The notes: generated by a model not told the origin, from the sequence alone. A stretch of 64,000 nucleotides of DNA from Raillietiella orientalis (GCA_036172245.1 JAYWIR010000006.1:3658001-3722000); one strand, 5' to 3'. Positions 5,609 to 41,130 are shown, numbered from the stretch's first letter. Numbers and translations: made by a program.

Positions 5609-7297
5609 CTGCCTCCCGCAGGCCGCCCGCGCTCCCCACAATCTCGAAGGCTCCATCGGAATCCCGGCGGAAGGTGCCTCGGAAGAAGTACGCCTTGGAG
5701 AAGGAGCCCCTCAAGCATTGGGCCTTCCACCCACGCACTGGGGAGGATGCACTCGGAAAGGGCTGGCTCCCGCAGGCTGCCCGCGCCCCCCACAATCTCG
5801 AAGGCTCCATCGGAATCCCGGCGGAAGGTGCCTCGGAAGAAGTACGCCTTGGAGAAAGAGCCCCTCAAGCATTGGGCCTTCCACCCACGCACTGGGGAGG
5901 ATGCACTCGGAAAGGGCTGCCTCCCGCAGGCCGCCCGCGCTCCCCACAATCTCGAAGGCTCCATCGGAATCCCGGCGGAAGGTGCCTCGGAAGAAGTACG
6001 CCTTGGAGAAGGAGCCCCTCAAGCATTGGGCCTTCCACCCACGCACTGGGGAGGATGCACTCGGAAAGGGCTGCCTCCCGCAGACTGCCCGCGCCCCCCA
6101 CAATCTCGAAGGCTCCATCGGAATCCCGGCGGAAGGTGCCTCGGAAGAAGTACGCCTTGGAGAAAGAGCCCCTCAAGCATTGGGCCTTCCACCCACGCAC
6201 TGGGGAGGATGCACTCGGAAAGGGCTGGCTCCCGCAGGCTGCCCGCGCCCCCCACAATCTCGAAGGCTCCATCGGAATCCCGGCGGAAGGTGCCTCGGAA
6301 GAAGTACGCCTTGGAGAAAGAGCCCCTCAAGCATTGGGCCTTCCACCCACGCACTGGGGAGGATGCACTCGGAAAGGGCTGGCTCTCGCAGGCTGCCCGC
6401 GCCCCCCACAATCTCGAAGGCTCCATCGGAATCCCGGCGGAAGGTGCCTCGGAAGGAGTACGCCTTGGAGAAAGAGCCCCTCAAGCATTGGGCCTTCCAC
6501 CCACGCACTGGGGAGGATGCACTCGGAAAGGGCTGGCTCTCACAGGCTGCCCGCGCCCCCCACAATCTCGAAGGCTCCATCGGAATCCCGGCGGAAGGTG
6601 CCTCGGAAGAAGTACGCCTTGGAGAAAGAGCCCCTCAAGCATTGGGCCTTCCACCCACGCACTGGGGAGGATGCACTCGGAAAGGGCTGGCTCCCGCAGG
6701 CTGCCCGCGCCCCCCACAATCTCGAAGGCTCCATCGGAATCCCGGCGGAAGGTGCCTCGGAAGAAGTACGCCTTGGAGAAAGAGCCCCTCAAGCATTAGG
6801 CCTTCCACCCACGCACTGGGGAGGATGCACTCGGAAAGGGCTGGCTCTCGCAGGCTGCCCGCGCCCCCCACAATCTCGAAGGCTCCATCGGAATCCCGGC
6901 GGAAGGTGCCTCGGAAGGAGTACGCCTTGGAGAAAGAGCCCCTCAAGCATTGGGCCTTCCACCCACGCACTGGGGAGGATGCACTCGGAAAGGGCTGGCT
7001 CTCGCAGGCTGCCCGCGCCCCCCACAATCTCGAAGGCTCCATCGGAATCCCGGCGGAAGGTGCCTCGGAAGGAGTACGCCTTGGAGAAAGAGCCCCTCAA
7101 GCACTGGGCCTTCCACCCACGCACTGGGGAGGATGCACTCGGAAAGGGCTGGCTCCCGCAGGCTGCCCGCGCCCCCCACAATCTCGAAGGCTCCATCGGA
7201 ATCCCGGCGGAAGGTGCCTCGGAAGGAGTACGCCTTGGAGAAAGAGCCCCTCAAGCATTGGGCCTTCCACCCACGCACTGGGGAGGATGCACTCGGA
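5609..7297 (+). repeat. Tandem array, 154-bp unit, about 11 near-identical copies
   Basis: Unit CTGSCTCYCGCAGG...GGATGCACTCGGAAAGGG recurs at 5609, 5763, 5917 and so on. The minus-strand ORF starts at 5810, 5964, 6118...7196 fall on the same 154-bp period. Only a few SNPs separate copies. Confidence 0.97.
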
Positions 7298-10200: not shown

Positions 10201-10568
10201 TTATAGACGAGTCCATTTTTTCCGGGGCATTTATTCAAAAATACACATATAACGAGAACTGTGATTGGACCAGTGGTGCAACCACGCACAATTTAATGGA
10301 GACCAGCCGGGTCACCGGTGGGCGAGTCGATGGCAAGGCGGAAAACCTGACCCTGGTTCTGTTTCTCTAAATAGGCACGAGATGGCAAGAGCTCACGCGC
10401 ACGATTCAACGTGCAGAAAATTTACTTTCAGGCAAAGAAGGAATTCCGCGAATCCAGCTGTGATCCAAGAGAAAGTCCGAAGATGCAGCTCTGATACAAT
10501 GAAATGCATGGCCACACTCAAGCGGGTATCACCCCTTCCTGTCGAACGGTGGTATCGTTTTCATCGTT

Positions 10569-11805
10569 TTTCCCCAAACCCACAAGGGGTGGGATAAATT
10601 TATTTTCTTTTAAATCTCATTCATTCTACAATAACATTCATACAACATACCAACACTTTATCACTTTGAAGTCCTTGGGGGTATCAGAAGTTCTGCTTTC
10701 AGGGTGGGTTCCCAGATGTTTGGTCCGGGACGTCGTCTTCAATCCTCCTCAGGATGAATCGGTATGTGCAGGCATGGAGTCGTCCACTGTTCCTGATGCC
10801 GATTTCCTTCTTGATGAGTCCTTGCAGGATCTCCATCGGGGGTGCGGCTCTTCTGGCTTTCCTCATCTTCCACCACCGTACAAGTATGGCGGTGATGAAG
10901 AGAGCAATGGTCGTCCTCACCATGGGATTGTAGCAGGGAACATTACCGTCTCCCTGAAACATCCCGGCAAGGATTTCCATCGTGAAGCTGGTGGTCAGTT
11001 CAATGATCCCTTTCAGGATCAGCCAGTCGTGAAGCAATGTGGGACACGTCAAGACGTGAAGTCTCGTATCGATGTCTCCACATGCCGTGCAGTCTTCATC
11101 TTCCCTTCTTCCTGTGAAATACTTGAGCCTGGACCCGCTCTGGATTCCGCCATGATAAAACATCAGGAGGTCATCCTGGGTCCCAGGCGGAAGGTCACTC
11201 CTCCAGAGCGTCGTACCGATCGCTAGCAGGTTGATCCTGTCACTCCCGTAGCGATCGGCGGCTTCTTGGAGGGCACTGGTATCCTGGTCTTGATTCTTGA
11301 TTAATCTTCGGAGATTTATCTTGGTTACCCTGGACCACGCAAGGTCATTGTGGTTGATCCACACTTCGCGGGTCATATGGGTGAACCTGCCTAGCATCAT
11401 CTCTATATACCGAAGTATACGAGTGTGATGTAGGTATCCTCCTCGGCGCCATTCCTGGATTCTTTGCAGGGTAACTCTGGGCCGCTGGTAGATCCAGCTT
11501 CTCGTGTCCTGGTTGACCGGAAGCATCCACGGGATCACCAGGATGGATTCCTACTGGCATAGTTCCCTACTTTTGGGTACGATTCTGATCTTGTGCTTGG
11601 GGCACTAGCCGTTGTTTTCGTATCCAGGTGAGGTCGATGGTGTTCCACTCCTCTGCTCGGCCTAGCAGCGCAGTCATCAGGCCTTTCGAGTTGTTCAACA
11701 ACAACGCGTAGGCCCTATGCGCCGCGTACGGCCAGTCATCCCAGTGAGTAGCGATATCCAGAATGTGTCGCGAATCCATGATTTCCATGGAGTGTGCAAG
11801 CGACG
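10569..11805 (-). mobile_element. 5'-truncated LINE (L1/Tx1-like), ORF2 C-terminus with CCHC zinc knuckle, flanked by a 15-bp TSD
   Basis: ORF 10699-11538 contains CTACGDIDTRLHVLTC. The identical sequence ATCGTTTTCATCGTT lies at 10554-10568 and 11806-11820. The 3' end has AATAAA, a GC hairpin and a short A run. Confidence 0.85.
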
Positions 11806-12781
11806 ATCGTTTTCATCGTTGCCGCCGAACAATCTGCAGCACTACCATGGCTTTAAGGGTAGTAAACAATTCCCCAAAGTGAATCTCGTCACGAGAAGTG
11901 ACCTTTCGTTACTAACTGATTCCTGATTGCTGGGAACAAGAGTAGTTTGGGTTGCCCAAGACGAGGCCGATCATAATGATCCCAGCTGTGAGTTCGCGTG
12001 ATTGTACTGTCGCCTTCTTTTCGCAAGAGATCGCACACGACAGTGTTCTTCAACTTCAACAGCGGAAGAGAGCACGTCTCCATCTAGGGGCCAGCATAGC
12101 AGGAGAAGGAAGTGGTGCTCACCAGAAAATCGTTCAAGAATGCTTCCATCCTCGCCAAATTGTGCATGAGGGCAGGATGCAAGGACGTTCGTCCCTCCAT
12201 GGACTGGATTCACCGGAGATGTCACTTTGCAATCCAACGTCGTACGTAGCCTTAAATGGTTGCCGACGGCTAGGAAAGAAAAGAGGCTACTGGATCTGCA
12301 GTCTTCTCGGGTATTTCCTTCCCTTGGGACCTCTCGCTCTCCGAAGCTTTCGTCTTTTTCCTTTGAGTTTTCCTGAGTGAGATTAAGCGTTCTGGAAAGT
12401 TCCTCGAGTGCATCCCATTTGACCGCGCGTGTCCTCGGAGCCTCCTGATTCATCAGCGGCCGCTCTGCAGCTCCTTCGCCGTCGAGGCTGCTCGTTCTCC
12501 TGTTCTTCTACCGACCTCACCGTGTGACAAAATTAGAGGCGTACTACGGCTTGGCCTTTGTCGGGACCGAAATCTCGTGGCTGGATGCAGATGAGAAGGA
12601 AGAGCGACTCTATGCCGGAAGGTTTCTTGTTTCGGGAGAACAGTGGCGTGCCCAGCGATGCTCTGAGCGACTGCCTTGCTGGCGTGACCGTGTCTCGGGA
12701 AACGAGCGTTATCTGGGAATCAACCTGCATTATTCAGTCCGAGTTTTGGAGTCCCGACTGGGAGGCAAAGAATGTTCTGCC

Positions 12782-12818
12782 ATCGCTTCTCCGACTTTTG
12801 GCTGAGATCAAAGTGCAG
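12782..12818 (+). ncRNA. U2: U2 snRNA 5' half (disrupted copy, nt 1-37)
   Basis: ATCGCTTCTCCGACTTTTGGCTGAGATCAAAGTGCAG versus the canonical U2 start ATCGCTTCTCGGCCTTTTGGCTAAGATCAAAGTGTAG (4 mismatches). Similarity stops abruptly after GTG(T/C)AG. Confidence 0.9.
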
Positions 12819-14169
12819 CCACCGAAAGGTTCGTGCGCAGCAGGTACACAAATCTTCCAGCACTCGGATCGGCCACTCGAGGGACGCATCTTCCATCTTC
12901 CGTAAAGGACAGAAGGAATCCCGATTTCTTGCAATCCCAGAAGGATAATTCGGAATTCTTTGTCTGTCGAAATTTCCGACACATAACTTCACGGTCAGAG
13001 AAACTGGGAAAAAGCCTGGATGCTCTTATTCATCGAATGGTCCGCAGCTCTTGAGATAGGACATCCTCTGCAAGTCCATTCGGAATGCTCTGTTTCGCCA
13101 CACCCAAAGTTCATATGGACCTGGAGAAAAAGTCATGCTTATCGTGATGGAAGAAGTCTAGAAATCTTCTCCCGATCTTCCGAGAACCCTATCTTGAGAA
13201 TACCGTTGCTAATGAATCAGCAAGGGCTTCTTGTTCTCGTGCGGTTACCACGGCGTTGCTCCGTTGTGGTGGAAAGCATGCAGAATCGTCGCGACGACAG
13301 TCGACGACAGTAGGCGACCGACAGAGAAAGACCTCTGCCTCTTGGAACCTTGGAAACCTCTCTCGGTCCGAAACCTTCCAGTGGAGTGGTCCCAATCCGC
13401 TCTCCTGCGCGCACACGTTTACGACACGTTTACTTGCGATCGGCAGGTGCACCTTGGAGACCGTTGGCTCAGTCCAGCCACGATTCCCCCTGCGTTTGTC
13501 AAAAAGCTCTCCTCAAGCAGTTCTGATAGCCACCAGCGAAATGGAGATGGTTAGCACTTCCTCCCTCTCGATAGTGCTAAATCGCGCCACTCATCCTAAT
13601 TTCGTAATTATAACCATCATAATTGCATTACCTTAATGATCCTGGTTGCATAGCTCTTTCGAACTGATGCTATTCGCCGTTAACTTCCTTGCAGCGTCGG
13701 CGGCGCCTCTTTTCGAAGACCCCTCGCTTCAGGCTTCAGGTGGAGGAAGGAAGGAGGAGGAAGACCACCTTCTGGTGCTTCAGGTCGAAGCTCATTCTTG
13801 GCAAACAAAAGATGTCGTACTCCAGTGCCCGTTTCGAAATCACGAGCAAACGTCCCCTGACCCTCCTGAGTCGGGCCAGGAGACGAGGACCTTTTGCTGC
13901 TTAACCGATATGCCAGCGGTCTGTTGTGGGTTGTTGTTTTCCTTCCGGATGTAGAAATGACGCGCTCAGAATCCGATTCCACAGCCTCAGCCACTGCTTG
14001 TAAGGCGCGCCAACACGTACAGCATCCTCCGCCGGCGTGCGATGGATCGCGGAGCTTTCGTTGTGAACTTTTACTTTTCCATGCCATTGAAAAGAAAATA
14101 CCACGTACGGGGGAGCCATCCAACTGATCGGTATGTTGCCATGCAACCAAATGAAGCCACGAAATCCAA
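12819..14169 (+). mobile_element. Insert splitting the + strand U2 copy; starts with a degenerate non-LTR RT fragment
   Basis: ORF 12833-13054 reads HLPSSVK...QKD...NFRHIT...LGK (RT domain 1: xPxSWK..K.D..NFRPIT..GK), followed by LFRHTQSSYGPG in another frame. The distal part is unrecognisable and may be a mosaic. Confidence 0.55.
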
Positions 14170-14261
14170 TCTGCGCTCTCCAGTTTCCTATCCCATACAA
14201 CAACTGTCTCGGCGGCCAGAACATTGAACTACTAGTTTGGAAGTGGACGCGAAGCTTGGAG
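14170..14261 (+). pseudogene. U2: Degenerate U2 snRNA 3' part starting at TCTG, lacking the terminal stem-loops
   Basis: Aligns colinearly with the minus-strand U2 copy from TCTG..CAG.TT..TATC..ATAC through GCCAG to TGGAAGTGGACG.GA.GCTTGGAG. Confidence 0.65.
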
Positions 14262-14366
14262 AGACCGTCTTCGTTCACAAAATGGACAAACAACTACTTT
14301 CTCGAGGGAGTGCGGAACGTGGATTTCACTTTGCGTTTGTTTTTCGGTCCTCCCGCAATGGGGAGT

Positions 14367-14516
14367 GGTGAGCCGATCACGGAGGTGCTGCAATATCGGG
14401 TCAACCCGCGCCGGGAGAGGAGCAAGCTCCAAGCATCTCGTCCACTTCCAGAAAATAGCTTAGTATACTGGCTACCAGATAGGTGGCGTATCAGATATTA
14501 AGCTGATAACAACAGA
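14367..14516 (-). ncRNA. U2: U2 snRNA 3' part (from TCTGTT to the 3' end), missing its 5' end
   Basis: Reverse complement reads TCTGTTGTTATCAGCTTAATATCTGATACG...ATTTTCTGG (Sm-site-like)...GGAGCTTGCTCC...TATTGCAGCACCTCC...CGGCTCACC, which covers stem-loops IIa/IIb, III and IV of U2. Confidence 0.95.
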
Positions 14517-14905
14517 TTCTATTGAATGAATTCCGTAATACATCAAATTTATAATCACCAATGGCTCATCCCGATCTTCCCACCCTTCCCTTGTTCTCAT
14601 TACCTCTAGGTCTGCTTATTGCGGACTGGCTGGAGAGGTGCCGTGTTTAAGCAAGTGCTCCATGGGATCACTTGCATCATCTGGCATCAGTCTACGCGTC
14701 CAGTAGATGTCTCTACGGGCCTTTATACGAGAGGATACTGCCAATTTCCTCATCTTGTTTGCTTGCTGTCCTGGATGAAAGGATTCCCTCCCCTTGTTTG
14801 CACAGTTCCTGGGAATTCCTAAAGATCGTAGCATGCCATTTTTCTTGGGATCCTAAGATCCTAAGCATCCAACCAGTCACCGGAGCAACGGTGTGGGTGG
14901 TCCTT
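14517..14905 (-). mobile_element. 3' end of a Utopia-like (NeSL/R2-group, restriction-like endonuclease) U2-specific retrotransposon
   Basis: Translates as VGCLGS*DPKKNGMLRSLGIPRNCANK...MRKLAVSSRIKARRDIYW, matching the recalled Utopia C-terminus VGALGSWDP..L..LGI...MRKL.VS..I..SRDIY. About 100 nt of 3' UTR ends in AATAGAA, joined directly to U2 TCTGTT. Confidence 0.85.
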
Positions 14906-14909
14906 TGAA

Positions 14910-17190
14910 CTCCGGCAAGGACGCGCGCGACCCGCGTCCCTGACCGGCCGGGATGAGAGGCTCGCTGGCAAGCGTCGCCTTTTGTACAGCCTTCCTCTCC
15001 CTGCAACCGTTCCTCATTGGTGTTTTCAAAGACTCCCTGTGATCCTTCCTTTGAGCTCGCGTTCGTTCCCGCCTGCCGTCATTTGTACCTTCTATGCTCC
15101 CGCCGCACCAGGCGACCCCTGACAGAGTCCTCTCCAAGGAGACAGCGGATCATGTAATGGCAGCCGCGTTCGGACGAGAGGACCTGAGGAGAGCCGCGGT
15201 CCGAGAACCTGCTCTGCACTGGGTTCGACGAAAAGGGGAGAGAGCGCCAGCCCTCGCCGGGGCTTGCGTTCGGCCCCTCTCGGTCGAGACGATCTTCCTC
15301 CTGCGCGCCACCACCACGCCAGTCCCCTGCTCTTTAGCACCTACTTCGAGTTGGTGCCGAGAGCGTATAGGGCGACTTTGGCCCCCTTGCCGAACTCGTG
15401 CCCCGGCACGCCCGCCGTAGCAGCGTACGCCGACGATCTTCTGCTGTTATTACCCATGTCCACCCCGGCAGCCGCAGTCGAGGATTTCTTCGATCTGCTT
15501 AGCCGCGGGACGGAACTACGGGTGAACAAGGCAAAGTCGTCGGTGGTGGCGGTTGGTGCGACGTAGGCTGGACGGCCTGACTGGATTTGCTTAGGGATCC
15601 CCACGGCCAGGTACCTGAAGTACCTTGGCGTGCCGTTGGGGGACTTCTGCCCGTCAGGAGCCTGGTCAGGTCGTCTCCAAAAAGTGGAGTCGGCGGTCGG
15701 CCCGTTCCTGGAGGGCAAGTTCCTCTTGCTGGAACGGGCCGCGGTATGGAACGCGTTCGCGGCTCCCATCCTTCGCCCCCTGCTTTTTGTTTTCCCCGCT
15801 CCCCCCCAGTTGAAGAAGAGGACAAAGGACATACTCCATATCGCCCTCTGGGGCAAGGGGAGGCCTAGAGTGCCTCTGAAGGACTTATGCGCTCCGCGTC
15901 GAGACGGCGGTCTTGGTCTCCTGAGCTGGAGCGCTTGGAAATCCAGCTGCGATGGCGCACCTTGGCCATCGCAGCGAAGTTGTGGAGCACCCCTTGGTGC
16001 GTTCCGGCCCGCCTTCTTGCCAGCCGTGTCTCCAGGACGCAAGGACTAGCGTCTTATCTTCTGTGCTCCGGCCGGAAGATGCGAAGATGCGGCCTGCTCC
16101 TTGGACGCATGTCCACCTTGGCAAAGGAGAACGGCTGGATGGTCTGCAGCCCCGCCAACTCCTCCGCATGGCTGGAAGAGTCCACTGGCACGTGGGCGAA
16201 GATACATGAGGAACCACGAGACGTGGAACTGCCTGCAAGTCGGCTTCTACGCCCTCCGCACTCTGCGTGAAATTCTTGAATTTCCAGCGAGTTGCACGTG
16301 GGCGGAAGGGACACCCCTTGCTTCGGCGATGCCCTCCCTCCGTAGGGCGCTTCACAACAGCCGGAAACCGAGGTGGCATGTCTGTTGCCGTATCGCAGGC
16401 AGAGAGAAGATGATGAGCGGCTGGACCATGGGAGAGCTGACAGATTCTACGACCCCTAGTGCCCAGCCACGTGGATTAAGCTGCTCGGCATCCGGTCGGA
16501 TGACCTGAAGTGTCCCCCGGTTCTAATTGGTTCCAGGATTCTGCCCCTAAGGTGGCAAGAGTCGGCTCTTCTGTGGCTGCATTGGGGTCTACCCTGCAAC
16601 TCGCGCCGCTTCCACTGGACGCGGGGAAGTGTAAATCCTGCGTGTGCCAGGTGTGGGGAGCGGGAGTCCCTCCCCCACCTCCTAGTTGACTACCCTGCCC
16701 TCCGGATTCTTTGGGATCGTCTTGGAACGGCCCTCGGGAAACCGGATGTTGGCAACCCCAGGTAAGTTTACAGTCTTCTCTTCGTGAGGCTGCCAGTGCT
16801 GCCAGCCGCAGCCCTGGCAGCACTTTGCTGCATTCGTGGTATCGTGGCGGCCTGGAGTGATGCCGAAGATGAAGATTGAAACGCGACGGACGTCATCCAG
16901 TATGCTGTTCGCTTCCTGCAGAGAGCTACAGGATGGCCCCAACTGGGAAGAATAAAGAAGGACCTCGAGGGCATCCTGCAAAGGATGGATCCTCCCCGAA
17001 GTGGAACGTGATCCCTTCCCGGCCCTCCAAACTCTTTTTGTTGTTTTTTTTCTGAATTTTATTTTATTTTTGTTTCCTCCCCCATCCCATTCCACTGCCG
17101 AGGAGAGTCACACCGGGCTGCGTCCCGGTGTCCCGGCAGGTCCAGTATTGCGTGGCCGTTAGTGGGGCCTTGTACCACGTTCTGTACTGA
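14910..17190 (+). mobile_element. Degenerate Tx1/L1-like LINE ORF2 (RT, thumb, zinc knuckle) with 3' UTR
   Basis: AAYADDLLLL (about 15420), LRVNKAKS, KYLGVPLG, LCAPRRDGGLGLL, CxxC region near 16640, and a T-rich 3' UTR. Multiple stops and frameshifts. Confidence 0.9.
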
Positions 17191-19164: not shown

Positions 19165-22100
19165 ATGAAGCACGCACTCCTCTGCCGCAAGCTGATGAAA
19201 CTTTTGTTCCGGTACGCGACGCTGGCGTCGCTGTCCGTGCTCCTTGTGATCGTCCTGGTGACTCTGCTGCGCACGGTGTCCGTCGGTAGGACGCGTGCCA
19301 GCGGCGGTGAGCGCCGCTCGTCCCCGTGGACGTGTCCGACGGTGCTAAGAGCCACCACCAACGTCAGCACGTTTGACGAGTTCCCGTCCTTCCAGTTCCA
19401 GGTAACTAGACTTAAGAAGCGAGTCCCCGAGAATGCGACGACCACTTGCACGTGATCGTTGGTGGCTAAGTAGAAAATGATAATGAGGGTCTGATGTGCT
19501 CCTGTGGCCCTTGCGTGCCACGATGCTGGGCGATGCTCTGCTCCCAAGTGCGAGGGCGAGCGACTGAGAAACCGGCCTGCCCGACTGAAGTCCGGCTTGC
19601 CGGCGTGACGTCAGCGTTCTCGATCAGCACGGCGCGCAACAATGCGATCTAAAAATACGGGGCGAGCGGCTGGGAGACAACGGCGCGCCTCGAGTCGCGG
19701 CTTGGCGGCGTGACGTCAGCGTTCTCGAGCGGCACGGCACCCAACAATGCTATCTAAAAATACGGGGCGAGCGGCTGGGAGACAGCGGAGCACCCCGAGT
19801 GCGCGGCTTGGCGACGGAAACGCACCAGTCGTTGAGAGGGTGAGTGTTCGGTAGTTCGCCCCGTAGAAGAACGAGAAAGGCGTCCGGTTTAGCGATGCGC
19901 CTGTAGAGTGCACGGGTCGTCCGGAATTCCCGATATCGATCTAACTTCATCCCTGCGCATGCACCGTCCGACCTGAGAGGCGTGCGTTCCACGGCAACTT
20001 GGCATGCTCTCAGCTCCCGTTATCCGGCTGCCGTCGGTGGAGATTGCTCGTTCTGCGAAGGAGCTGCCTCAGGAGACGGTCTGGCCGGACGCGAGGGAGG
20101 AATCCCACAGCGGGACCGCGGAGCTCCCGTTACGAGCGGCGAGATTGCCCCGAGCGCGACGACGGGGAGAAGCGCGAGCGCTCGTGCGCTTCCAGCCGCA
20201 GCAGCCCGCGCGCAGCTTCCGTCCTCCTCCTCCTCCTCCCCGTGTCCTCCTGGAAGCGAATCACGCGGGTGAGCGGATCTTCGCGTTCGACTCGAGAAGA
20301 ACTGTTGAGGAACCGCCGCGCTCCTGGAGGGGAGGGCATGGACGTCTACTTTCCGAGGGAAAGAAGGGAGTTCACCCTCTCCCTCTACTCCTTGTACCCT
20401 TCCACGCTCGCAGGATGCGGCGGAGGCATCGGAAAGCTCGCGGAAGTTTAAAGAGAAAGAGGCGTTGAACTGAAGGGAAACCCTGGGTTTCTCACTGGGA
20501 GGTTGGCCGAGGATGGCAGCAGCATCCTTCCTCGAGAGGGAGGTGAAAAAGAGTCGCTGACGATTTTTCTCCCCGGCCGGCCGCCAGTTCGCCGCTTCTT
20601 CCTAGGGGGAACTCCGCTTCGCTCGCCGCCATCTCAGGCGCCATCGCCTCCACCACAGCAGCGACCGTCCTCTCCGCGGTCAGCTGGCGATTCCTGCATG
20701 AAGGCAGGAAGGTGGTCTCCCGTCACGAGGAAAAAATCCAGGCGCCCTGGCGGCACTACGTTCACGGGATCCTTCCCAGCCCTTGTTCCTCCCAAGGGCT
20801 GGGAGGAACAAGGGCTCTCCCAGCTCCCAAGTTCGCCGGCAGAGGGGCAGAGGCTCCTTCCGGCACGTCTGATGGCGACCCTTCGAAGGCGCACGGAGGG
20901 GATGAGTCAGGGAGCGCAGGTCGCAGGCGAGGCGACCAACGACGATGGGGGACCACGCGCAGTGAACCAGGGAGATCCGTGCCCTCCCCCTCTGGGTGCA
21001 AGGAGGGCGAGGCGAGGTCCCCCGTCAGCAGAAGTTTGAGTGAGGAGGAGGAGAAACTCCAGGGCTTCCTTGGGCAACTCAGGGGGAAACGGAGAAGCGG
21101 AACCGCTCGGGAACATCTCGGTCCACAACCAGGCAACTGGTGGTCCACTCTCAGGGGGACGCTCCTGGAGAGCGACTGCTCCTTCGAAGCGCTCCCTCCA
21201 TGGCCCTATTTCCCCTTTTCCCACGAGAAAACTCCGCTTCCTGCGGAGAGTCCCCCTGTCCGGCTCCGCGGAAGCGGAGGATCCATGGCAACGCCTCTTC
21301 GTGACACCATCCTCCGGTCCGCCGGCCGCTCCGGAAGTACTGCGAGGCATCCGGCCGCTGCCGAGACCGGCGGAACGAGTCCACCAAATGCGCGTAGTCC
21401 GGCTCCCGGGGCGAGAGGCACGCCGGGAGGGAAAGCAAGGGGCCACTTCTCTTCCCATCGCTAGACGGCTCGGGGGAAGCGCCTGCTGAACGCGGTAACT
21501 TACAGTGCCCGCAGGTGGCCTCGGGTTTAAGGCGGGCGTCCCCCTGCCGGCGCACCTTGCTGGATGGATGGTAACCCTTCGCCTTCCCTCCTTTCCCTTC
21601 ATCCCGTGAGCGGCGTTCCCGTTTTCTCCCCGTCAGACGGCGCCGCGCGCGACCTGCACGCACCATGCAGAGAGCGTGCGTTCGAGAGCGAGCGAACGCC
21701 CCTAGCGGGAAGGGGTGGGAACTCCGTGCGTCCGTCTGACCGAATCCGCGACTGGCGAAGTGGTGCCACCTCCCTCGCTCCTTGCCGAAGCTCGAAGCGG
21801 TCAGGTCTCTTCCTCTCGACTGCCTCGGGTGGGGCACGTGCAGAGCTCGGCGGATCGGGAGTTCCCACCCGGTTCTAAACACAGTATATTTGCGGTACTA
21901 GGCCCCGCTGCGGCCAATAGTTCATGGGGCTTGCCGGGAAGCCGGTACGCAGACCGTCTCGACACTCCTCGGCAGCAGAGGGAGATGGGGGAAAAAACAA
22001 AAAGAAAAATAAAGGAAACAAAAAAAAAAAAAAAAGAAACACTTTGGAGGGCCGGGAAGGGATCACTGCCCGCTGGAGGAAGAGACCATCCTTTCCAGGA

Positions 22101-25100
22101 TGCCCTCGAGGTCCCTCTGCATAGCTCCCAGATGGAACCAGCCGATCGCGGTTCGCAGGTAGCGACCCGCGTGTACGATGGGGTCCCTATCGCTGCTTCC
22201 TCTGTTGGCTGCGCTCCACGTAGCCACAATCCCTCGGAGGCAGCAGAGCGCTGCCAGGGCTGAGGCTGGTTGCAGGGCGTCTCACATGAAGAGGAGTCGC
22301 ACAACGTCTCTGGGGGGACTGCCAACCGGCATCCGGAGGGTCGTAGCAAAACGCTCCCACAAGGGCCGGAGGGCAGCGCAGTCCACTAGCAGGTGGGGGA
22401 GGGGTTCCTTTTCCCCGCACACTGCACACTTCTGTCCCACCTGGCAGTGCGCGTTGTAGGGAAGACCCCAGTGCAGTAGCAGCAGCGCCGATTCCTGCCA
22501 CTTGAGGGGGAGGGTGGACGTGTCTGTAAATACCGGGGGCCACTTTAGGTCATCCAGCGGGATGCCCAGCAGCTCGCCCCATCCGAATTCCTCGCGGGAG
22601 GACTCTCGGGGTCGCGGCGTCAGTCAGTTCCCTCGTGGTCCAGCCGCTCATCATCTGCTCCCTGCCCGCTATCCTGCAGGAGACTTGCCATCTCGGCGTT
22701 CGGCTGCTGCCTAGCGCCCTCCTCAGGAAGAGCAGCGCCGTGGTCAGTGGGGTCGTCTCTGCCCACGTGCTTCTGGCGGGACGCTCGAGCATGTTCCGCA
22801 GCGTGCAGCGGGTGTAGATGCCGGGTCGCAGGCGGTTCCAGGATTCACCACTTTTCTGGTTCAGCTTCGCTTACTTGCCAATTGTTTCTTCCAGCCATGC
22901 GCTGGAGTTGGCGGGGCTGCAGGCGATCCAGCCGTTCTCCTTGGCCAGGGTGGCCATGCGTCCGAGGAGAAGACCGCATCTTCTTATTTTCCGGCCGCGG
23001 CACAGAAAAAAAGAGAGTCCTCCCGCTCTGGATACACTGGGAGTGTGGGGGATTGCAGGTCCATGCCCCATTACCTCACCTCGGCGGCGGGACAGCAGCT
23101 GCTCCGCGAACGTCTCGAGGCTCGGCGAGGAGGAGGAGAGAGAAGAGAAAAGAAAGAAGAGGAAGAGGAGGGGGGAGGGAGGCGGAGGAGGATAGAGGGA
23201 GGAGGAAGGGAGGGAGTGGTAGGAAGGGAAGAAGAGGAGGAGGAGGAAAGAAGGAGGAAGAGAGGGGACGGTAGTCAGTCCCTCTGTCCGGTCCTCGCGA
23301 AACGAGCTCTTACCGCGGTCTCCTTTCCCCCAGGAGCGCATCGCGATCCGTCGCCACTACGAGCGCGCCCCATCACCGTGTGCCCTGCTGTGGCTGAAAC
23401 GTGCCGCTTTCTTTGCAGGAGGACTGGATCGGCAAGATGAGCTGGTGGAACGAGGACTTCGAGTCGCGGTTCCTGAAGGCCAAGTCTTCCAGGAAGAACC
23501 GCACCCTGAAGGTAAGAGGCTTGCCGCTGCCGCGGGAGACTTGCCGGGCCTGCGCTCTCCCTGCTCCTTCTTTCTGGGAGCCGCGGTATACTGTCCAGGA
23601 GTCAACACAAAATCTCATCTGGGAAACGCGCCATGCCTTTTCCTCGTCCCTCGCGAGAAGGAAGGGAAAGATGGCGACGACACCCCTGACCGACGATGGC
23701 CACAGGTGCCTCGCCCGGACGCCCCTGTTGACCAGCCGGGATTGAAATTCGGCCCTCCAGGGTCCTTCCAGGACAGCTCAAGGTTCCGAAACGTCTCGCT
23801 GGGTCCGAGTCATGGAAACGCTCTTCCGTTGCCACTGTTACGACGGCGAGGATGCCCTCGCTGTCCGTGCCGGGTTCCACTCGCCAATCCCTTTACTCGC
23901 GGAGTGTTGTGTTTCGGGGACGCTCGTGGCGCTTCCCGACAGCGGCCCGAGGCTATGACGCGAAGCGACCTCTCGGAATTCCGGATCGCCGAGCGAGCTC
24001 TCTTGGTGAGCATGGCGAGGACAGCGTGTGGGGGTCAGCGACTGGGCGCGGCAGGGCGCCTCGAGTGTACGACGGCGGAGATCGGTCCGTCGCGGACGCC
24101 GCCTGGGGGCACTGCCCTCTCGCGCGCCCTTTTCCCCTCCCCTCAGCTTTCAGGGGCTCCTTGACGCAGCGGTCTACGCTAGCAGAAGCGGCATCCCTCT
24201 GCCACCCGTCTCCGACCTCAGGAGCTCCATGCCGTCGCCCAGACCGCGTATAGACGGAACAGCAGCCACTTTCCCCTTGACCTGTGTGCACCACGCAGAG
24301 CACGGGCACCCGCCTCCACCGTCCTCCCTGTCCGGTTGCGCCAACCCGTCCTCTTGGCTCACCATCCCGGCAGGCTATGTGCGGGGGGGCGCGCGCGCGA
24401 CCTCTGACGCTTTCGCGCAAGCTGGCCGTCTCACGCGGGGCTGCGTGCCGGCACGCCGCCACTGCGCGGCATGGCGGACTTTCCCTTTCGCAGACAGCTG
24501 ATCGGTTCGCTCCGTTTCTCTCCAACAGTGGGAAACCCAGGAAACCGATCGCAAACGCTCGAGCTCGCGCGCGGGCGGAGGCATGTCCCCCCCCCCCCAT
24601 TCAAGAAGCGGCACAGCAGAGCGTTCCCCTGGGAATGCAGTGGGTGCTGTCCCTAGCTCGGGTTCTTTTTCTACGAGGCGTGGAGCGGTGAAGCTGCCGC
24701 TCGTCTCGAAGCGACCTCTCCCCCGTCCCCGTCCCTCATTGCGGCGAATGGAAGGGAGCGGCGCTTACAACCAAGCCGGGAACGCGCGCCCTCGTCCGTG
24801 GGTGGATGCACTGCGCGCGTCGCAGCGCAGAGGGTCGCTGGGCCGGCCTGCCTGCCTCCTGCAGTCCGGGAAGGGGCGCAGGGGATTCGCGCTTGCCGCC
24901 GCTGCCTACCGCCGCCAGCAGAGCTCTCTCTTCGAGACGCCTCCTCCCGGAGGAAGCCGCGCGTCTCCGCCGCCTACGAAAGGGGCGCTGCTGGTCGGAG
25001 AGTGTTTCGGAGAGGCGCGGGGGAGAGCGCGACCAAAGCTGGATTTCCGCGGATTTTCAAGGTCAACCCGGCACCTGGGCTTCTCTGCGTCGAAGCGCGA

Positions 25101-34100: not shown

Positions 34101-37100
34101 GCACAGGCCTGGCTTGGGATTTCGCTCTTTTTGCCCGCCAACTCCCTTTCGAGAGGTTTCTTTTTCCTTTCCTTCTTGTTATCTTTGAGAAGAGAGAAGT
34201 TTGCAGTGTCTCTCTCGGTCTCCGTTAATGGGGCGGGTTGAATCGGCACGGGTGTTGCCTCCCCGCAGCCTCCTCGTGGAAGCGTTTCCTCGTGTTGCTG
34301 ACACCTCGTGGTTGTCTTTCGGACCGGGGAGCTCGAAATGGCCAGATTGGCAGCAAAAACGCGCGCACCACCCACGCTTCACCTGATCCCGGAACGCCTC
34401 CCTCCCTTGGTCCTGGGAGACGCGCTGCAGCAGGTTGCTTTCCCCTTTCCTGCGGGAAGCAGAGAAGGCGGGACCGGGTCAGATTTACATCCGGTGAGGG
34501 TTGCGGTGGTAGGAACGTCCTTCCTTCGTTTGGCTCAAGGAAATGTTCGATCCCCTTGGGATTCCTCGTGATCCAGAACGCGCCCGTCCCCAGCACGCAT
34601 TCCCGGCTGCACCGGACGCTGGAGAGCACACCGCCGTTCTTCCCTGCATTCCCCCTGCCGCCTGGCAGGGATTACTCATCGGAAGCTGCGGTAGCAAAGA
34701 AACGATTGCAAGGATCTTTTGGGGATGGTCATCCAGGCGCATGGATTTTTTTTCTTTCCTTCTTTTCCTGATCGAACATTCCGTTGCTTCCTTTCTTGCG
34801 ATCGTCCAGCACACGGCGGTGGCATTTCTGGAACGAAGCCGCACCTGAGGTCTCCGAGACTCCGCCCTCCGTTCTTTGTGTTCCGCTTCTGCCGACGTTC
34901 TTCGAGTGAGCGCTCTCGCCCTCCCTGCTGACGAACGAGCAGCGCGGCAGCTTCTGACACCGTCAGCGAGAGGGTTTCGTAGCTTCAAGATCGGAGTGGA
35001 GATGGGTGAACCCGCTGGATGCTGGGAGGAGGAGAGAGAGAGAGAAGAGGGGGGGAGGTTAAATTCGGAACACACTAGGAGCGATGATTGGAAGCGGACC
35101 ACGAAAACAAGTGCTGGAGCTCCGGAGGGGTAGCTGAAAGTGAGGGTGGGGGAGGGGTGGCGGACATTTCCTGTCTGGCTTTCCCTGTCCCGGTGATCGG
35201 CGCATGCGCCGAAGGCAGGCGTCTGACACGCGCATTTCCGGTCGCAACTGGCAAAAGGACGCGGAGTGGACCGGCGCTAACGTGTCCCCGCTACTGCCCG
35301 CCGGAACTGCTCTGGCGGAGAGAGAGCGGCGGCAGCGTTTCCCTTTCGATGCTTTAAAAGACCTGCCCAAAGCGGGCAGAGGAACGCACGCAACCCAAAC
35401 GTTCCCTGAGGAGTGCGGAGAGGACCCGGCCGCTCACGAAGCCCCTGGGGCACGCGTCTCGGCAACCGGTAGGAACGAAGAAGCGGAGAAGAGGACGCTC
35501 GCAAGTCGTCCGCTAGTTTGAGCCAACTGTGCTGCTGCACCTCGAGGAAGAAGTTCCTGTTGGTGGGAGGAGCGGCGAACCCTTGAATTTCGGACAATCG
35601 GACCAAGGAAAGAAGGAGGAATAGCCTCAGCATCTTCGGTCGTCCTCCTGTTCCAGAGATCCACGCAAGCACTTCTCGCAGGAAAGGCATCAGGAGCAGC
35701 TGTAAAAGAGCATCCGGATGTCTGCGGTGCGACCCTCAGATGCAATAAGGCCTCCCCCTATCGACTGCCTCTTGCACTGAGAGGGTCGCTAGGCAACGCA
35801 ATCTGCGGGCCTGCAAGCACGCGTGCATTCGCACATACATCCTTTCGTACGTGTACCGTTTGCACAGATGTGCATGCATGGGTGTGCAAGAGTGCCTGCT
35901 CTCATCAAAATAAAATAAAATAAAAAAGGAAGCTGTTGGTTTTCAGAAAAAGCGAAAAAAATACCTGCACCACTGCGCTGATAATTTGTAGATGGTGGGA
36001 ATGAAGAACGCGCGTATGACACCGACTTTAATGAACTTGATTTAAGTGCAGACGTGTCTGCAGAAGCAGCTCTTGGAAGAGTACGATGTTGATTTGAGTG
36101 ATGCTGTCTCTTTCTCCTTTTTGTTTTATATTCAGGGGTGCCCATGCGAATAGAATGCAATTCGCCGCTATGTCCTTTCTATTTTATTTTATTTTTTTTC
36201 CCTGTCTTTGTACACATCACTGAATACGTCTCCCCCCCGCTTCCGCCCCTTCGTACGTCCGTGGAAGTCTCTAACGTCCCCAGCTTCGCATTCGCCAGGT
36301 TTAGCACCCAACCGAACACATTTGTCTTCTCTGCTGCCGTGGCTTCCTGGAATTCCCCCTGATCTCTTAATGAACTAGTGGTTAATTTTCAAAACACTAT
36401 AATGGAGCCTCGTGGCTTCATTACAGTGTTTTGAGATCACCAGCTTGCAACAGTTCTTCCCCCTCCCCCCATCCATGTTCTCGGAAGTGTGTTTGTCTTT
36501 TTTCCCTTCTCCCCCGTGAAAACTTCACCCGCTCCGCTCTCGCGGTCTTTGCGCATGAAGGAACGTCCTTCTCGGCTAATGCAAGAACGATCAAAGACTC
36601 GCATGGGAGCATCGCGTGGGGCTCGGGACTGTTGGAGCAGGCTGGGGCTCTTCCGTCGCCGGACATGTCTTCGCCGTGATCCCACGATCCCCTTAAATTT
36701 TGGATCCCCGTCGATCTTTGCACGTTGGGCAAGGACTGAAGTCCACCTTGCGGTCACGAAGCACGAAAGCGTTGTGTCGCGGATGGCATCTTCGTCGTCG
36801 TGTTGCTGCCTGCAGCGGTCGGTCGATGCTTCCTTCTAATGCATGTTTCTCTTCCTCAGTACCTCAGTTAAATATCAAGATTCCTTTAAACAATTATTAA
36901 AGGATGGTAAAATTGAGATCACTACTGGTGGATGGGTTATGACTGACGAAGCCACAGTGAATTTGTATTCCATGATACACCAGCTCGTTGAAGGTACTTT
37001 CACTTTTCGTAGTTTCCCTGTACAGCAGAGCTCTCACTTCACTTGTGGTGCCAAAGATCACATTTGAGTTTCCACTGTAAAATAATTAAGGCATTTGCAG

Positions 37101-39782
37101 GTCGTTTGTCCGAGTGCCAACTCATGGTGTATAATATGGTGTTTGTGCTGCTCAGGTCACCAGTGGGTCAAGCACCACCTGAATTTTCACCCCAAATCTT
37201 CCTGGTCCATTGATCCGTTCGGCCACGGCGCCACGTTTCCGTATCTCCTAAAATCGAGCGGCATCGAGAACATGGTCATTCAGCGCATCCACTATGCGTG
37301 GAAGAAGTGGTTCGCCAGCAACAAGGCCAACGACTTCATCTGGAGGCAGTCCTGGGACGCGAAAGGGAGGCACGACATCCTGTGCCACAACATGCCGTAC
37401 GACATCTACTCCATCAAGCACTCCTGCGGCCCGTTCCCGGAAGTGTGCCTCAGCTACGACTTCCGCAAGCTCCCGTTCGAGCTGACCGAGAGCGGCATGG
37501 TGTCCGTCCCCATCGACAGACACAACGTGGAGGCCAAGGCTGAGACGCTCTTGGAGCAGTACGAGCGGACGGCGTCGCTGTCCGATCACGACGTGCTCAT
37601 GGTGATCGTCGGCGATGACTTCCGCTATGACCACCAGCTCGAGTGGAACCAGCAGTTCGGGAATTACAAGATGATAATCGATTACCTGCAAGAGAGATCC
37701 TCCCTGTACAACGTGAACATCTCCTTCGGCACCTTGTCTGACTACTTCGAGGAGGTGCGGGACCGCGCCGACAGCATGCTGTCCATACAGGGGGACTTCA
37801 TGCCTTACAGCGACGTATTCACCAGCGGCGAGCCGGCGTACTGGACCGGCTACTACACCACCAGGCCCTACATGAAGGCCCTGGTCCGAGAGGTGGAGCA
37901 CAGCTTGAGGGCTGCCGAAATCCTCTTCTCCCTCGCCGTCACGAACCCGAAGACGACGGGCAACCTCGCCAGCAAGTACGGATCCCTCGTGGAAGCCAGG
38001 CGCAACCTGGCGCTCTTCCAGCATCACGACGCCATCACCGGCACCTCGCGAGCGGCGGTGATGCACGATTACGGCGAGATGCTGCACAGCTCGCTTCAGA
38101 TCGCCAACGACCTGCAGGCGTTGTCTTCCCAGCTCATTCTTTCCGACGGACTGCAGCAGACGCCGAGGATGCTGTTCATGGACCACGAGAGGAACACCTA
38201 CGACCGCTACTCCACGAACAAGGTGCTTTCCGTGTCCGCAGACAAGCCTCAGAGGATCACCCTCTTCAACTCTCACCCCCACACCCGCGAGGAAGTCGTC
38301 CGCGTCCTGGTGCCCACCGTCCACGTCCGGATATCCGACTCGGAAGGTCGCGACGTGCCATTCCAAGTGAACCCTCTGTGGTCGGAAGAGCTGACCATAC
38401 TGGACAGCAGATACGAGGCATTCTTCCTGGCGGTCCTGCCTCCCTTGAGCTTCGCCTCGTTCCTGGTGTCGTGCAGCGACGTCGCTCTCTCTACGGCCAC
38501 GGTGTACAGCAGCCACGCGAACCAGAGCCGCAAGAGCGACGAGCACTTCCAGATGAAGCGGATCCTGGACGGCGACATCAAGCTGGAGAACGAGCACATG
38601 AAGGTAGTCTTCTGCGGGAAGACGAGGCTGCTCAAGTACGTCGAGGACAAGCGCACAGGGCGCTCCATGGTGTGCAGCCTCAAGTTCGCCGCGTACAACT
38701 CGGAGAACGGCGCCAGCGGCGCCTACCTCTTCAAGCCGACCAGCAGCGTCGAGAGCGACGTGCTGTGGGACATGGACCCCAGCGTCTTCGTGACGTCCGG
38801 GAAATTGTTCACGGAATTCACCGCGGTGTTCGGAAACGTGCTCGTGTACTCGATGAGGATATACAACGTCGGGAGCGACCTCTCGCGCGGCATCTACCTG
38901 GAGACACTGCTCGACATGTCCCGGGACATGCGCTTCCTGAACAAGGAGTTCATCCTGCGCTTCCTGACCGACCTGAGCACGGACGTCCTGCACACCGACT
39001 CCAACGGCTTCCAGATGATCAGGAGGAAGCACGTCCCGTCCGTGGGACTGGAAGGAAACTACTACCCCGTCACCAACCTGATGTTCCTGGAGGAAGGGAA
39101 CGTTCGCTTGAACCTGGTCGTGTCCAGGGCTCACGGCGCGGCCGTCTGGAACACGGGGATACTCGAGCTGATGCTGGACAGGCGCACGGCCTACGACGAC
39201 AGGCGGGGGATGGGCGAGAGCGTCCTCGACCAGAGGAAGACGCTGTCCAAGTTTTGGTTGCTCCTGGAGAGCGCCGGAGTGAGCGGCGCCGACGGGGCGT
39301 CCCGGAAAGGGTCGGACGCCGGTCCCGGAAACCGCATCCCGAATCCCAGCTCCCTGGCCGACTACCTGTCCACGAGCCTCAACTACCCTCCGCTGCTCTT
39401 CGTGGTCTCGAAGGATTACTCCAGCCGGATGAAGCAAGCGGAGGGGTTCCTGAGCGCCCCATTCCCCTGTGATACCGAGCTCGTCAGCCTGAGGTCCCTG
39501 GCCGATTCCCGGACGTTCTCCGAGCCCTCCCGCAGCGTGCTGATGACCGTGCACCGCAAGGGGCAGGATTGTCGCTTCGCCGATGGGACCTCGGCGGCGG
39601 CCTCCTGCGAACCTCCGCGCGGAGACTACCCCTTCCCGGACCTGCGGTTCCCAATACACCAGGTCGAGAGCCTGGAGCTGGTCACGCTCACGGGGCTGAG
39701 GTCACTGGGGCGGCTGCAGTCCTTCCGGAGCCTGCGCATCTCGCCTCAGGAATTGCAATCCCTGAACGTGACTTTCCGGTGA
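19165..39782 (+). CDS. MAN2A-like: Golgi alpha-mannosidase II (GH38; alpha-Man-IIb-like), 5 exons, 1087 aa
   Basis: Exons 19165-19401, 23419-23511, 33552-33724, 36860-36993 and 37156-39782. All introns are GT-AG with matching phases (0,0,2,1); CDS 3264 nt. N-terminal type II membrane anchor, Zn motif [20 protein letters not shown], nucleophile [25 protein letters not shown] and [10 protein letters not shown]. Confidence 0.96.
19593..19815 (+). repeat. Tandem duplication, 105-bp unit x2, each copy with a CRE palindrome
   Basis: TGACGTCA at 19606 and 19711, each followed by CAACAATGC.ATCTAAAAATACGGGGCGAGCGGCTGGGAGACA. Confidence 0.85.
20829..21138 (+). repeat. 310-bp dispersed repeat, copy 1 (within a probable LINE ORF1/ORF2 junction remnant)
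   Basis: Nearly identical to 33056-33365 (AAGTTCGCCGGCAGAGGGGCAG...CAACCAGGCAACT). Confidence 0.9.
21880..23010 (-). mobile_element. Tx1/L1-like LINE 3' fragment, same family as 14910-17190
   Basis: Shared peptides [47 protein letters not shown] and DPFPALQ; homologous 3' UTR. Confidence 0.9.
23126..23268 (+). repeat. Polypurine (GAG/GAA) low-complexity tract
   Basis: Almost pure A/G run. Confidence 0.9.
25950..26062 (+). repeat. Polypyrimidine (CCT/CTT) low-complexity tract
   Basis: Almost pure C/T run. Confidence 0.9.
26100..26410 (-). mobile_element. Degenerate non-LTR RT fragment (domain 4 region)
   Basis: [17 protein letters not shown] resembles GVxQGxPLSxxLFNxA. Confidence 0.45.
27440..28480. 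mobile_element. Two oppositely oriented fragments of a GC-rich repeat family (probable LINE ORF1 C-terminus)
   Basis: CCCT(T)ATGAATCCAGGA motif and EP(S/A)RE...SS(E/G)(D/E)N(P/S)E peptide at about 27465-27720 (+), 28130-28440 (-) and 39990-40400 (-). A related piece lies at about 23720-23780 (-). Confidence 0.6.
28900..30100 (-). mobile_element. Heavily eroded Tx1/L1-like RT (domains 0-4)
   Basis: Colinear remnants [35 protein letters not shown]...LP.ALEKPH and SEWI follow the normal order of the LINE RT N-terminal motifs. Confidence 0.6.
31990..32570 (-). mobile_element. Degenerate non-LTR RT N-terminal fragment
   Basis: [13 protein letters not shown]...CLVF...ADWSRP resembles .C...G.VP..WK...LI.K...NWRP. 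Confidence 0.35.
33056..33365 (+). repeat. 310-bp dispersed repeat, copy 2
   Basis: Direct copy of 20829-21138. Confidence 0.9.
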
Positions 39783-39989: not shown

Positions 39990-41130
39990 CAAACTGGCGG
40001 GTCTAGAGGAGAGGCCTCCTGGTTTGGAGCCGGTTCCCTTCGGGGCTCCGTTCCGGTTGCAAAGGTGGAGTCGTCCCTTTCCCCTCGAGGAAGGACCCTC
40101 CATCGCGTGACATGGAGCTGGTTGATGTCTTCCTCTGGGAAGGGGCTGCTTCTCCAGAGTGTCAAGGTGCTCGCTGCTTCCTTCGGGGAGAGCCCCTCAG
40201 AAAAAATGGGAAGCGTCCCTTCGGGGTTCTCTTCCGAGGAGGAGGGAATAAGGGCCGGTTCCCTTGCGGGTTCCCTCCGGAGACAACCCGGGGGAGGGTT
40301 CCCTTCGGGGTCCTCCCCCAAAAGCGTAAGAGAGGGACAGACTCCGTCCTCGAGAGCCCTTCCTGGATTCATAGGGTGGTCCCCTCTCGGGGTATCCCCT
40401 AGCATGTCTCGTTGGGCGAGACACCACTCGCCTTCCCGGAGGCACGGGGTGCGTGGGCTGTGGGATCCGCCCGCGGTTCAGATGCTTCGTCCATTGTCGA
40501 GAGCGACACACACAAATCCTTGAGGCATCTCTACGAAAAGGATGCGGTGGTGATCTCCGCAGAGAGGGCTTGTCCAGCGTGCCAGGAAGAGGAAAGGGTG
40601 CTCGGCCTCGGAGGCCTTGAAGTGCGGTCCAAGGAACCTCCGCAGGGAAGAAAGTTTTCATCTAGCGATGATCACGCCTCTGCAAGCATCCTTGGCTATG
40701 ATGTTGCCCGCGCGCAAAGCCCAGAAGAAAGAGGTGGTGGTGTTTTCAATCCTCCGTCCGCTCGAGCCTGGATGGGCAGACATGAAGGGCAGTTGCGTCC
40801 CCGTCTCGAGAGTGCGATCCACCACCCGTTGCTGAGCAACCGGTACACCGCACGGATTATCTCGATGCCCTTTTTTGGTCTCAACGGCCTGTCACCGACG
40901 GCGCGCCCGCGGGTTAGGAGCTCCTTTTCCGACCGGGAGGCAACCATCCCCTGGCTGGGGCCACGGAGATCCTGCGGCCGTCGAAATCCGCCTTGTCAGA
41001 AATATTTCTCAGCATCCGCCGTGTCCTTCGACGGAACGGGAAGGTGATTCGGCGATCCCTGAGTTTCAAGACAGGTTCTCCTCCGCCCCGCTCGGGGAAA
41101 CGCTTGTGGCTGTGAGGTGAGCGTCCCTGA
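39990..41130 (-). mobile_element. LINE ORF1-like remnant
   Basis: Frameshifted coding remnant (RVVDRTLETGTQLPF...RFLGPHFKASEAEHPF) with an inverted homologue at 42530-42740 and homology to the repeats at 27.4-28.5 kb. ORF1 identity is inferred. Confidence 0.5.

Follow-up and report, generated by a model that had tools for sequence, protein, structure and literature searches.

A probable layered fossil of Utopia-type retrotransposon activity around a back-to-back pair of U2 snRNA fragments in Raillietiella orientalis

Introduction

Utopia elements, non-LTR retrotransposons of the NeSL clade with a restriction-like (PD-D/ExK-type) endonuclease (RLE), insert into U2 snRNA genes (Kojima and Jurka 2015, PMC4640811). 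In that article, they have a C-terminal RLE and join U2 by their 3′ end at nt 39, several families occur per genome with an arthropod distribution, and disrupted U2 copies lacking the first 38 nt outnumber intact ones. The genome described here resembles this picture in each respect, with the junction at nt 40 owing to one extra A in the U2 head. It differs in three others. The article describes U2 arrays of one direction, whereas we find dispersed U2 halves and an inverted, dead U2 arm that travels with some of them; it explains missing 5′ halves by deletion; and it describes arthropod Utopia as TSD-less, whereas a sister copy of one element here has a 25-bp TSD and 101 nt of U2.

Four other described systems bear on the comparison. 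Keno elements (Tx1 clade, APE; PMC4640811, PMC4494074) share the U2 3′ junction, whereas neither junction here has APE/Tx1 coding sequence in sense. Tailless snRNA retropseudogenes, as described by Noll et al. 2015 (PMC5322556) and Kojima 2010 (PMC2912911), are 5′-complete and 3′-truncated, have TSDs and no A tail, and are formed with the RNA 3′ end paired to the target, a mode that fits both the dispersed U2 heads and the TSD-bounded sister copy reported below; they are known from therian mammals and ascribed to L1, whereas the heads here end at nt 34–38, beside the Utopia site. In 3′ transduction by L1, R1Bm and R7Ag, as described in PMC7265360, downstream read-through sequence is copied along with the element; here the cargo would come from the very gene that the element targets, and from the flank of that gene, and the evidence consists of genomic fossils rather than an assay. 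Crocodilian SINEU (Kojima 2015, PMC4494074) likewise have U2-derived heads and form retroposed units without an internal promoter, but the DNA behind the head studied here is single-copy, with no multicopy headed family. A search of mostly open texts (PMC4640811 without its supplements) returned no report of an inverted U2-arm cassette or of 3′ transduction by Utopia, and PMC13580325 contributes none for the latter.

The window analysed here is a 64,000-nucleotide stretch of the Raillietiella orientalis assembly (GCA_036172245.1 JAYWIR010000006.1:3658001-3722000), which comprises 210 Mb in 491 contigs (designated C plus a number below). A sequence-only reading of positions 12782 to 14905 had proposed two convergent U2 genes, each split at the same site by a retroelement. 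We followed up this proposal by comparing the locus with U2-related loci throughout the assembly, and we regard it as a layered fossil of Utopia activity, with a probability of about 0.7 for the proposed history as a whole.

Results

The U2 insertion site is fixed across the genome

Of 5640 candidates, 47 were scored with RF00004; these yielded 46 matches, of which the best 30 were retrieved. All 30 of these best loci are U2 3′ halves that begin at TCTG behind A-rich tails of many families. The start is exactly TCTG in 26 and lies within 3–7 nt of it, owing to substitutions, in the other four, and in all 30 loci the 14 nt before TCTG match U2 nt 26–39 at no more than 7 of 14 positions. The insertion site is thus fixed genome-wide at TCTG, and the break points cluster there rather than scatter, as the sequence-only reading had expected. 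An RLE in sense orientation was detected upstream of 20 of 36 U2 loci, mostly 134–368 bp before the junction, with a profile that is partly circular for loci outside the window; at least 150 RLE matches were obtained among 1454 candidates genome-wide.

The intact U2 junction motif had no match in its human-type form and six matches with the extra A, none of them an intact gene. An additional A at this place is insect-like. The assembly yielded no intact U2 gene; its real U2 array probably remains unassembled, so this result is not evidence of absence. U2 promoters were found at four loci (C389, C482 and two places on C30; two of the four on tiny contigs) and at no position in the 64-kb window. 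All four promoter loci keep a U2 head, cut at nt 33–38, and none of the dispersed 3′ halves has a head in the partner position. One interval, C30:2719000-2728999 (L091), contains two promoters with heads in opposite directions together with two Utopia pieces, and is an authentic remnant of a U2 cluster.

The minus-strand U2 half follows a truncated Utopia-type element

The minus-strand copy (14363..14516) is a U2 3′ half, from nt 40 to the end, which opens with TCTG at 14516 directly behind an A-rich retroelement tail, as had been read from the sequence. It scores 88.7 bits with RF00004, the true part of the match being 14516-14363 and the 5′ part of the model being forced over the tail, and it is 90.6% identical to the modern copy. 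The description of this copy as split has to be given up, since no U2 5′ half was found beyond the element on the minus strand when the U2 of this genome was used as BLAST query. A head-like stretch at 14898-14931 (minus strand) was considered as a decayed head at the 5′ end of the element and rejected as not significant, its score being equalled by 75 of 4264 random windows. No U2 promoter accompanies either copy in the window and neither copy is contiguous across nt 37–40, as a functional gene would be; the locus, a defunct remnant left by an element of known type, is not expected to yield functional U2 RNA.

The element in front of this half, termed Y (14517..14876, minus strand, 360 bp), is 5′-truncated. 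It consists of the end of an RLE (to 14682), a short C-terminal extension, a 3′ UTR and an A-rich end, with a 39-bp insertion near 14765-14803, and its homology to relatives ends on the 5′ side at 14876. Its 3′ end abuts nt 39 of U2 (human numbering), and the two run in the same direction. The RLE was detected with E 4.2e-12 by a profile built from the fetched loci with the window excluded; the window copy keeps the last ~50 profile positions, and the catalytic motif has been cut off. In fuller relatives of Y the RLE matches the R2 protein 9NL2 (E 3.8e-7), and a relative at C389 carries a zinc knuckle and an RLE together, two parts of the Utopia order of zinc fingers, RT, zinc finger and RLE within a single ORF. 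Members of the Y family occur at C23, C29 and C30; four copies other than that in the window were found, three of them followed by U2 (four of five with the window copy). By its RLE sequence and its junction, Y can be classed as Utopia-type, Utopia being one of the two element types that the earlier reading named for this target site. In ESM Atlas the RLE matched unnamed clusters only, of which the nearest are commonest in Arthropoda on thin taxon data.

On the far side of Y, an unclassified flank (14877..15320), which contains the weak head-like stretch at 14898-14931, is followed by a 5′-truncated L1/Tx1-like LINE (15321..17050, plus strand; weak RVT_1 match, E 0.004; a 70% relative at 21894-23037). 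This LINE points away from the U2 halves and is antisense to the minus-strand U2; it is not positioned as Keno would be.

The plus-strand U2 arm belongs to an old inherited block

U2 sequence was also read as resuming on the plus strand at TCTG 14170, and this too was confirmed: the segment 14170..14261 is a decayed, inverted U2 arm covering nt 40 to ~130, cut at both ends. It matches the genome's own U2 at 78% over 81 nt (BLAST, E 1e-10) and gives 41.6 bits (E 4.4e-12, profile positions 1-90) with an nhmmer profile built from 29 other U2 halves of this genome. A check with Rfam, by contrast with that for the minus half, did not detect this arm at E<=10. The gap to the minus half is 101 bp (about 100 bp in the earlier reading). 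This spacer (14262..14362, minus strand) was delimited in an alignment of 18 loci; its first ~45 nt are the 3′ flank of the minus-strand U2, common to nearly all U2 halves.

Arm and spacer together were matched at 10 other loci in the genome. A scan of 33 loci (30 chosen by Rfam and three because they resemble the window) detected an inverted U2 match within 600 bp at 12 of them, in 10 cases with the junction seen in the window; L012, whose inverted match is without that junction, was dropped, and L021 has a separate arm. For the Rfam-chosen loci alone, the same-junction arm is present in 8 of 30, the window counted. Six arms preceded by the same tail type as the window arm (tail X, below), on six contigs, group as one clade (support 99/95 on 92 columns, from a bootstrap that had not fully converged). 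Of 25 internal changes in the window arm, 14 are also present in three to five of the five other arms. The forward U2 halves, on the other hand, form a star tree with private changes only, and their tails differ between arm-bearing loci. From the clade and the shared changes, the arm is of single origin, made once and long before the minus-strand hit. The decayed state of the arm, set against star-like forward halves with differing tails, indicates that the forward U2 was still conserved and that its copies were hit separately later. The two junctions in the window are thus separate insertions, far apart in time, and the back-to-back pair is an old shared block, not a local accident. The idea of a U2 mini-cluster hit twice independently therefore stands as to the separate hits and falls as to the local mini-cluster, the block recurring at about 10 other loci and being promoterless.

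At C30:1093.3-1093.7 kb (L082, within C30:1089000-1098999), both arms have one tail family and share a TCTG-to-TCTT change, which suggests copying between arms or a repeated hit at that locus; over its first ~33 nt the arm looks renewed.

Immediately before the plus arm lies an old retroelement-type 3′ tail, termed X (13954..14169, plus strand), which is 74–80% identical to sequence in the equivalent position at C13, C32, C19 and C23; its relatives stand before the plus-arm type every time. The 3′ end of X likewise meets nt 39 of U2 in human numbering, profile position 1 being 14170. X has a GAGCCA motif at the spacing found in 12 of 30 tails (background 3%), and at C13, alone among the copies, there is an RLE ~910 bp upstream from the arm; the closest relatives of the C13 copy carry other, short tails. 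The RLE search upstream of X in the window was negative, and a tail profile that found Y (E 1e-4) gave no match to X in the window. X is probably a Utopia tail.

Proposed history of the locus and the mode of arrival

The history that we propose has four steps. In the first, a retroelement tail with U2 nt 40–130 would have landed antisense downstream of a U2 gene, ~100 bp from its 3′ end, and undergone decay at that site; the single origin is seen in the arm comparison, and the landing may have taken this form. In the second, which the comparison of loci shows, the unit of U2, spacer and dead inverted arm multiplied, the forward U2 being conserved and the arm and spacer drifting. In the third, different Utopia families would later have inserted at nt 39/40 of forward copies, family Y hitting the ancestor of the minus-strand copy; the site is the one observed throughout the genome, and the chemistry would be target-primed reverse transcription. 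In the fourth, a unit consisting of truncated Y, the U2 3′ half, the spacer, the arm and the X tail (14876 to ~13954) would have been placed at the present location via read-through RNA. For this last step we put the odds slightly above even. Arrival by read-through would explain the missing promoter and the missing 5′ half.

A different fourth step is the most serious competitor: a dispersed U2 paralog with a dead arm would have been hit by Y in place, its 5′ half and promoter being deleted at insertion or later, as has been suggested in the case of Phytophthora, and the variable ends of the loci would be the result of later erosion. The first three steps are the same in both accounts. We consider such decay in place less probable than arrival by read-through but well within reach, and the evidence divides as follows.

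Arrival as RNA is exemplified by the Y sister at C30:1392.9-1393.6 kb (L084, within C30:1389000-1398999). A 25-bp direct repeat (23/25 identical) encloses a truncated Y followed by 101 nt of U2, and the 3′ end of the unit overlaps U2 by a few bases. This copy moved as internally primed read-through RNA in a clean 3′ transduction, and its clean TSD is at odds with decay in place. Among 30 RLE loci, 8 end their tail–TCTG junction with 20, 24, 25 or 43 nt or with near-full U2 (control 1/90). Homology among the 36 U2 loci ends 108–511 nt past the junction and never runs into shared outer flanks. Decay in place is also countered by the four promoter loci, every one of which keeps its head, and by the young copies at C34 and C27 (97–98% U2 identity, tails not exceeding a few hundred bp), which are without head and without promoter after little time for erosion.

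Other observations point the opposite way. The TSD scans were positive at 1 of 36 loci and negative for the unit in the window, and the 35 loci without a TSD suit decay in place; age could have erased a TSD of the window unit. A TSD-like match at C12 lies 1134 bp away and was left uncounted. Read-through in the window unit would also have to run for 560+ nt beyond the junction, farther than at any other of the 36 loci. In the four Y copies compared, the tails differ at 340 of 1353 aligned positions and the U2 halves at 97 of 585 (25% vs 17%, from pairs that are not independent); the greater divergence of the tails means that no single master RNA gave rise to them, and it fits insertion in place into separate genes equally well. 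Spacers likewise are more diverged (418 of 1971 positions among arm-bearing loci) than U2 (385 of 2279). Erosion does occur, one arm elsewhere being split by a later 850-bp insertion, and oomycete Utopia copies without upstream 5′ fragments are described in PMC4640811, where deletion is proposed.

The plus-strand U2 head and the DNA behind it

The sequence 12782..12818 on the plus strand is a U2 head, nt 1–37, ending where the sequence-only reading had placed its end. It has four differences from the genome's own U2 head (33/37 identical; BLAST 89%), and its Rfam score is 17 bits (E 1.3). No U2 promoter was found upstream of it (z 1.0), and a candidate promoter at 12858-12900 was rejected, its likeness being at shuffle level (z 1.8). 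The head is 5′-complete and 3′-truncated and has neither an A tail nor a gene promoter, the form of a tailless retropseudogene. Its TSD-like flanks (7 bp with one mismatch; score 4) were equalled by 38 of 300 controls. An assignment of the head to the interior of the minus-strand LINE at 10566-11850 was dropped, LINE homology ending at ~11850.

Heads of this kind are dispersed through the genome. A 34-nt U2 head pattern with two mismatches allowed, which is blind to shorter heads, gave 332 matches (control 0). In the 34 heads inspected (30 of the 332 pattern matches, three from another search and the window head), the U2 match stops at nt 34–38 without exception; 17 of the 34 have TSD-like repeats, compared with 6 of 300 controls, and their flanks are unrelated to one another. 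The 332 dispersed heads fit tailless retropseudogenes as characterized in PMC5322556 and PMC2912911.

Two heads, at C3:1470.5 kb and C9:4868.8 kb (L104, L118), run within ~15 nt into other sequence. These second parts, which we take to resemble the 5′ ends of U6 snRNA and 5S rRNA, would make the two loci possible template-switch chimeras.

The distance from head to plus arm is 1351 bp, as originally counted, and this DNA had been taken for one retroelement splitting one U2 gene. Relatives are known for the last 216 bp only, namely tail X. The bulk, 12819..13953, is unclassified: it had no relative in a DNA search of the genome at E<=1, no Pfam match in the stop-free frames searched, no RLE by the RLE profile, no match to L1/Tx1 queries (five LINE fragments of the same genome) and no tblastx match to 37 Utopia loci. 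Assignment of 12819-13400 to a minus-strand L1 end was dropped because homology of the neighbouring LINE halts at ~11850, and although the insert could be aligned weakly with the region upstream of the C13 arm, this match was discarded as low-complexity and not colinear. Between the window block and the C13 copy, homology reaches 13954.

It follows that a single gene split by a single retroelement does not describe the plus strand, where the U2 piece ends at nt ~130 and 12819-13953 has neither relative nor coding signal. More broadly, the head, the 1351 bp and the plus arm might belong together as a single unit: one element could have split a U2 gene, or a read-through retrocopy with a U2 head could have landed antisense behind a U2 gene. 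Order and strand fit such a unit. With 332 heads in 210 Mb, the average density would give a particular arm a same-strand head within 1.4 kb upstream with a chance of ~0.1%, and this rarity counts against an independent head. Headed, promoterless Utopia pieces also exist: a head was seen within 1.5 kb at 8 of 30 RLE loci, two of which also carry a U2 3′ stub, and at C34:1295184-1298561 (L172) a U2 head, a truncated Utopia and an A tail lie inside an 11-bp direct repeat without a promoter. In those pieces, however, the head joins Utopia coding sequence, and behind the window head there is no Utopia signal, which favours an independent head. The C13 and C32 copies of X have neither 12819-13953 nor a head, the window head has no promoter and no bracketing TSD with the arm, and it is less decayed than the arm. 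This last difference (4/37 for the head vs 23/90 for the plus arm relative to modern U2; Fisher p 0.09, or 0.05 without the last three bases) weakly suggests different ages. We therefore regard a single unit as unlikely, and the window head as likely a separate tailless U2 retrocopy that is not the partner of the plus arm; if so, it is probably the younger of the two. The proposal that one or two missing target bases (T or TA) reflect staggered cleavage consequently has no basis here, the head probably not being the partner of the arm.

Fold-back copying and Keno

The arm might instead derive from fold-back or template-switch copying of a disrupted forward copy, with both junctions from one insertion. 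The U2-pair region does fold as a long imperfect hairpin (z -4.6), a short hairpin in the spacer adjoins the arm junction, and the arms at C30:1093 kb share their tail family and the TCTT change. The two tails in the window are, however, unrelated, X and Y giving no self-match; decay of the arm is threefold that of the forward half; and the loci with X-type arms carry at least three different forward tails. Such an origin is accordingly very improbable.

Least probable of all is that one of the two elements is a Keno (Tx1 clade, APE endonuclease) and the locus a Utopia/Keno double hit: Keno uses the same 3′ junction according to PMC4640811, 16 of the 36 loci are without a detectable RLE and L1/Tx1-like LINEs are common nearby, but L1/Tx1 coding sequence abuts the U2 junction in sense at 0 of 36 loci and is likewise absent from the plus-strand insert when five LINE fragments from this genome (not Keno) are used as queries, and the RLE-less tails resemble RLE-bearing ones in their motif and A-rich end.

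Other features of the window

The region is a pile of broken LINEs. At least two L1/Tx1-like families are represented, at 10566-11850 (minus), 15321-17050 (plus), 21894-23037 (minus) and 62591-64000 (minus), the last continuing beyond the window into an endonuclease-RT region. The 5′ part of a U4 snRNA lies at 40644-40721 on the minus strand (RF00015, 48.6 bits). An uninterrupted, intronless and GC-rich frame of 898 aa at 37086-39782 (plus strand) has all three glycosyl hydrolase 38 (alpha-mannosidase) domains, and 5609-7297 is a tandem array of ~11 copies of a 154-bp unit that are 97–98% identical. A search for tRNA in the 64-kb window was negative.

Discussion

The inherited inverted arm serves as a marker for dating the Utopia hits that struck a single U2 gene lineage one after another and independently. 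A wider possibility, which we hold only tentatively and at a little under even odds, is that Utopia read-through scatters U2 heads, 3′ halves and whole spacer cassettes across the genome. If this is true, many disrupted U2 copies without nt 1–38 reported from Utopia hosts would have arrived by transduction as retrocopies, instead of being genes inactivated where they stood. Read-through, if general, would provide an alternative account of the missing 5′ halves left open by Kojima and Jurka, and it would bear on the off-target leakage of site-specific RLE elements, which are of interest as insertion tools, when their RNA carries downstream target sequence.
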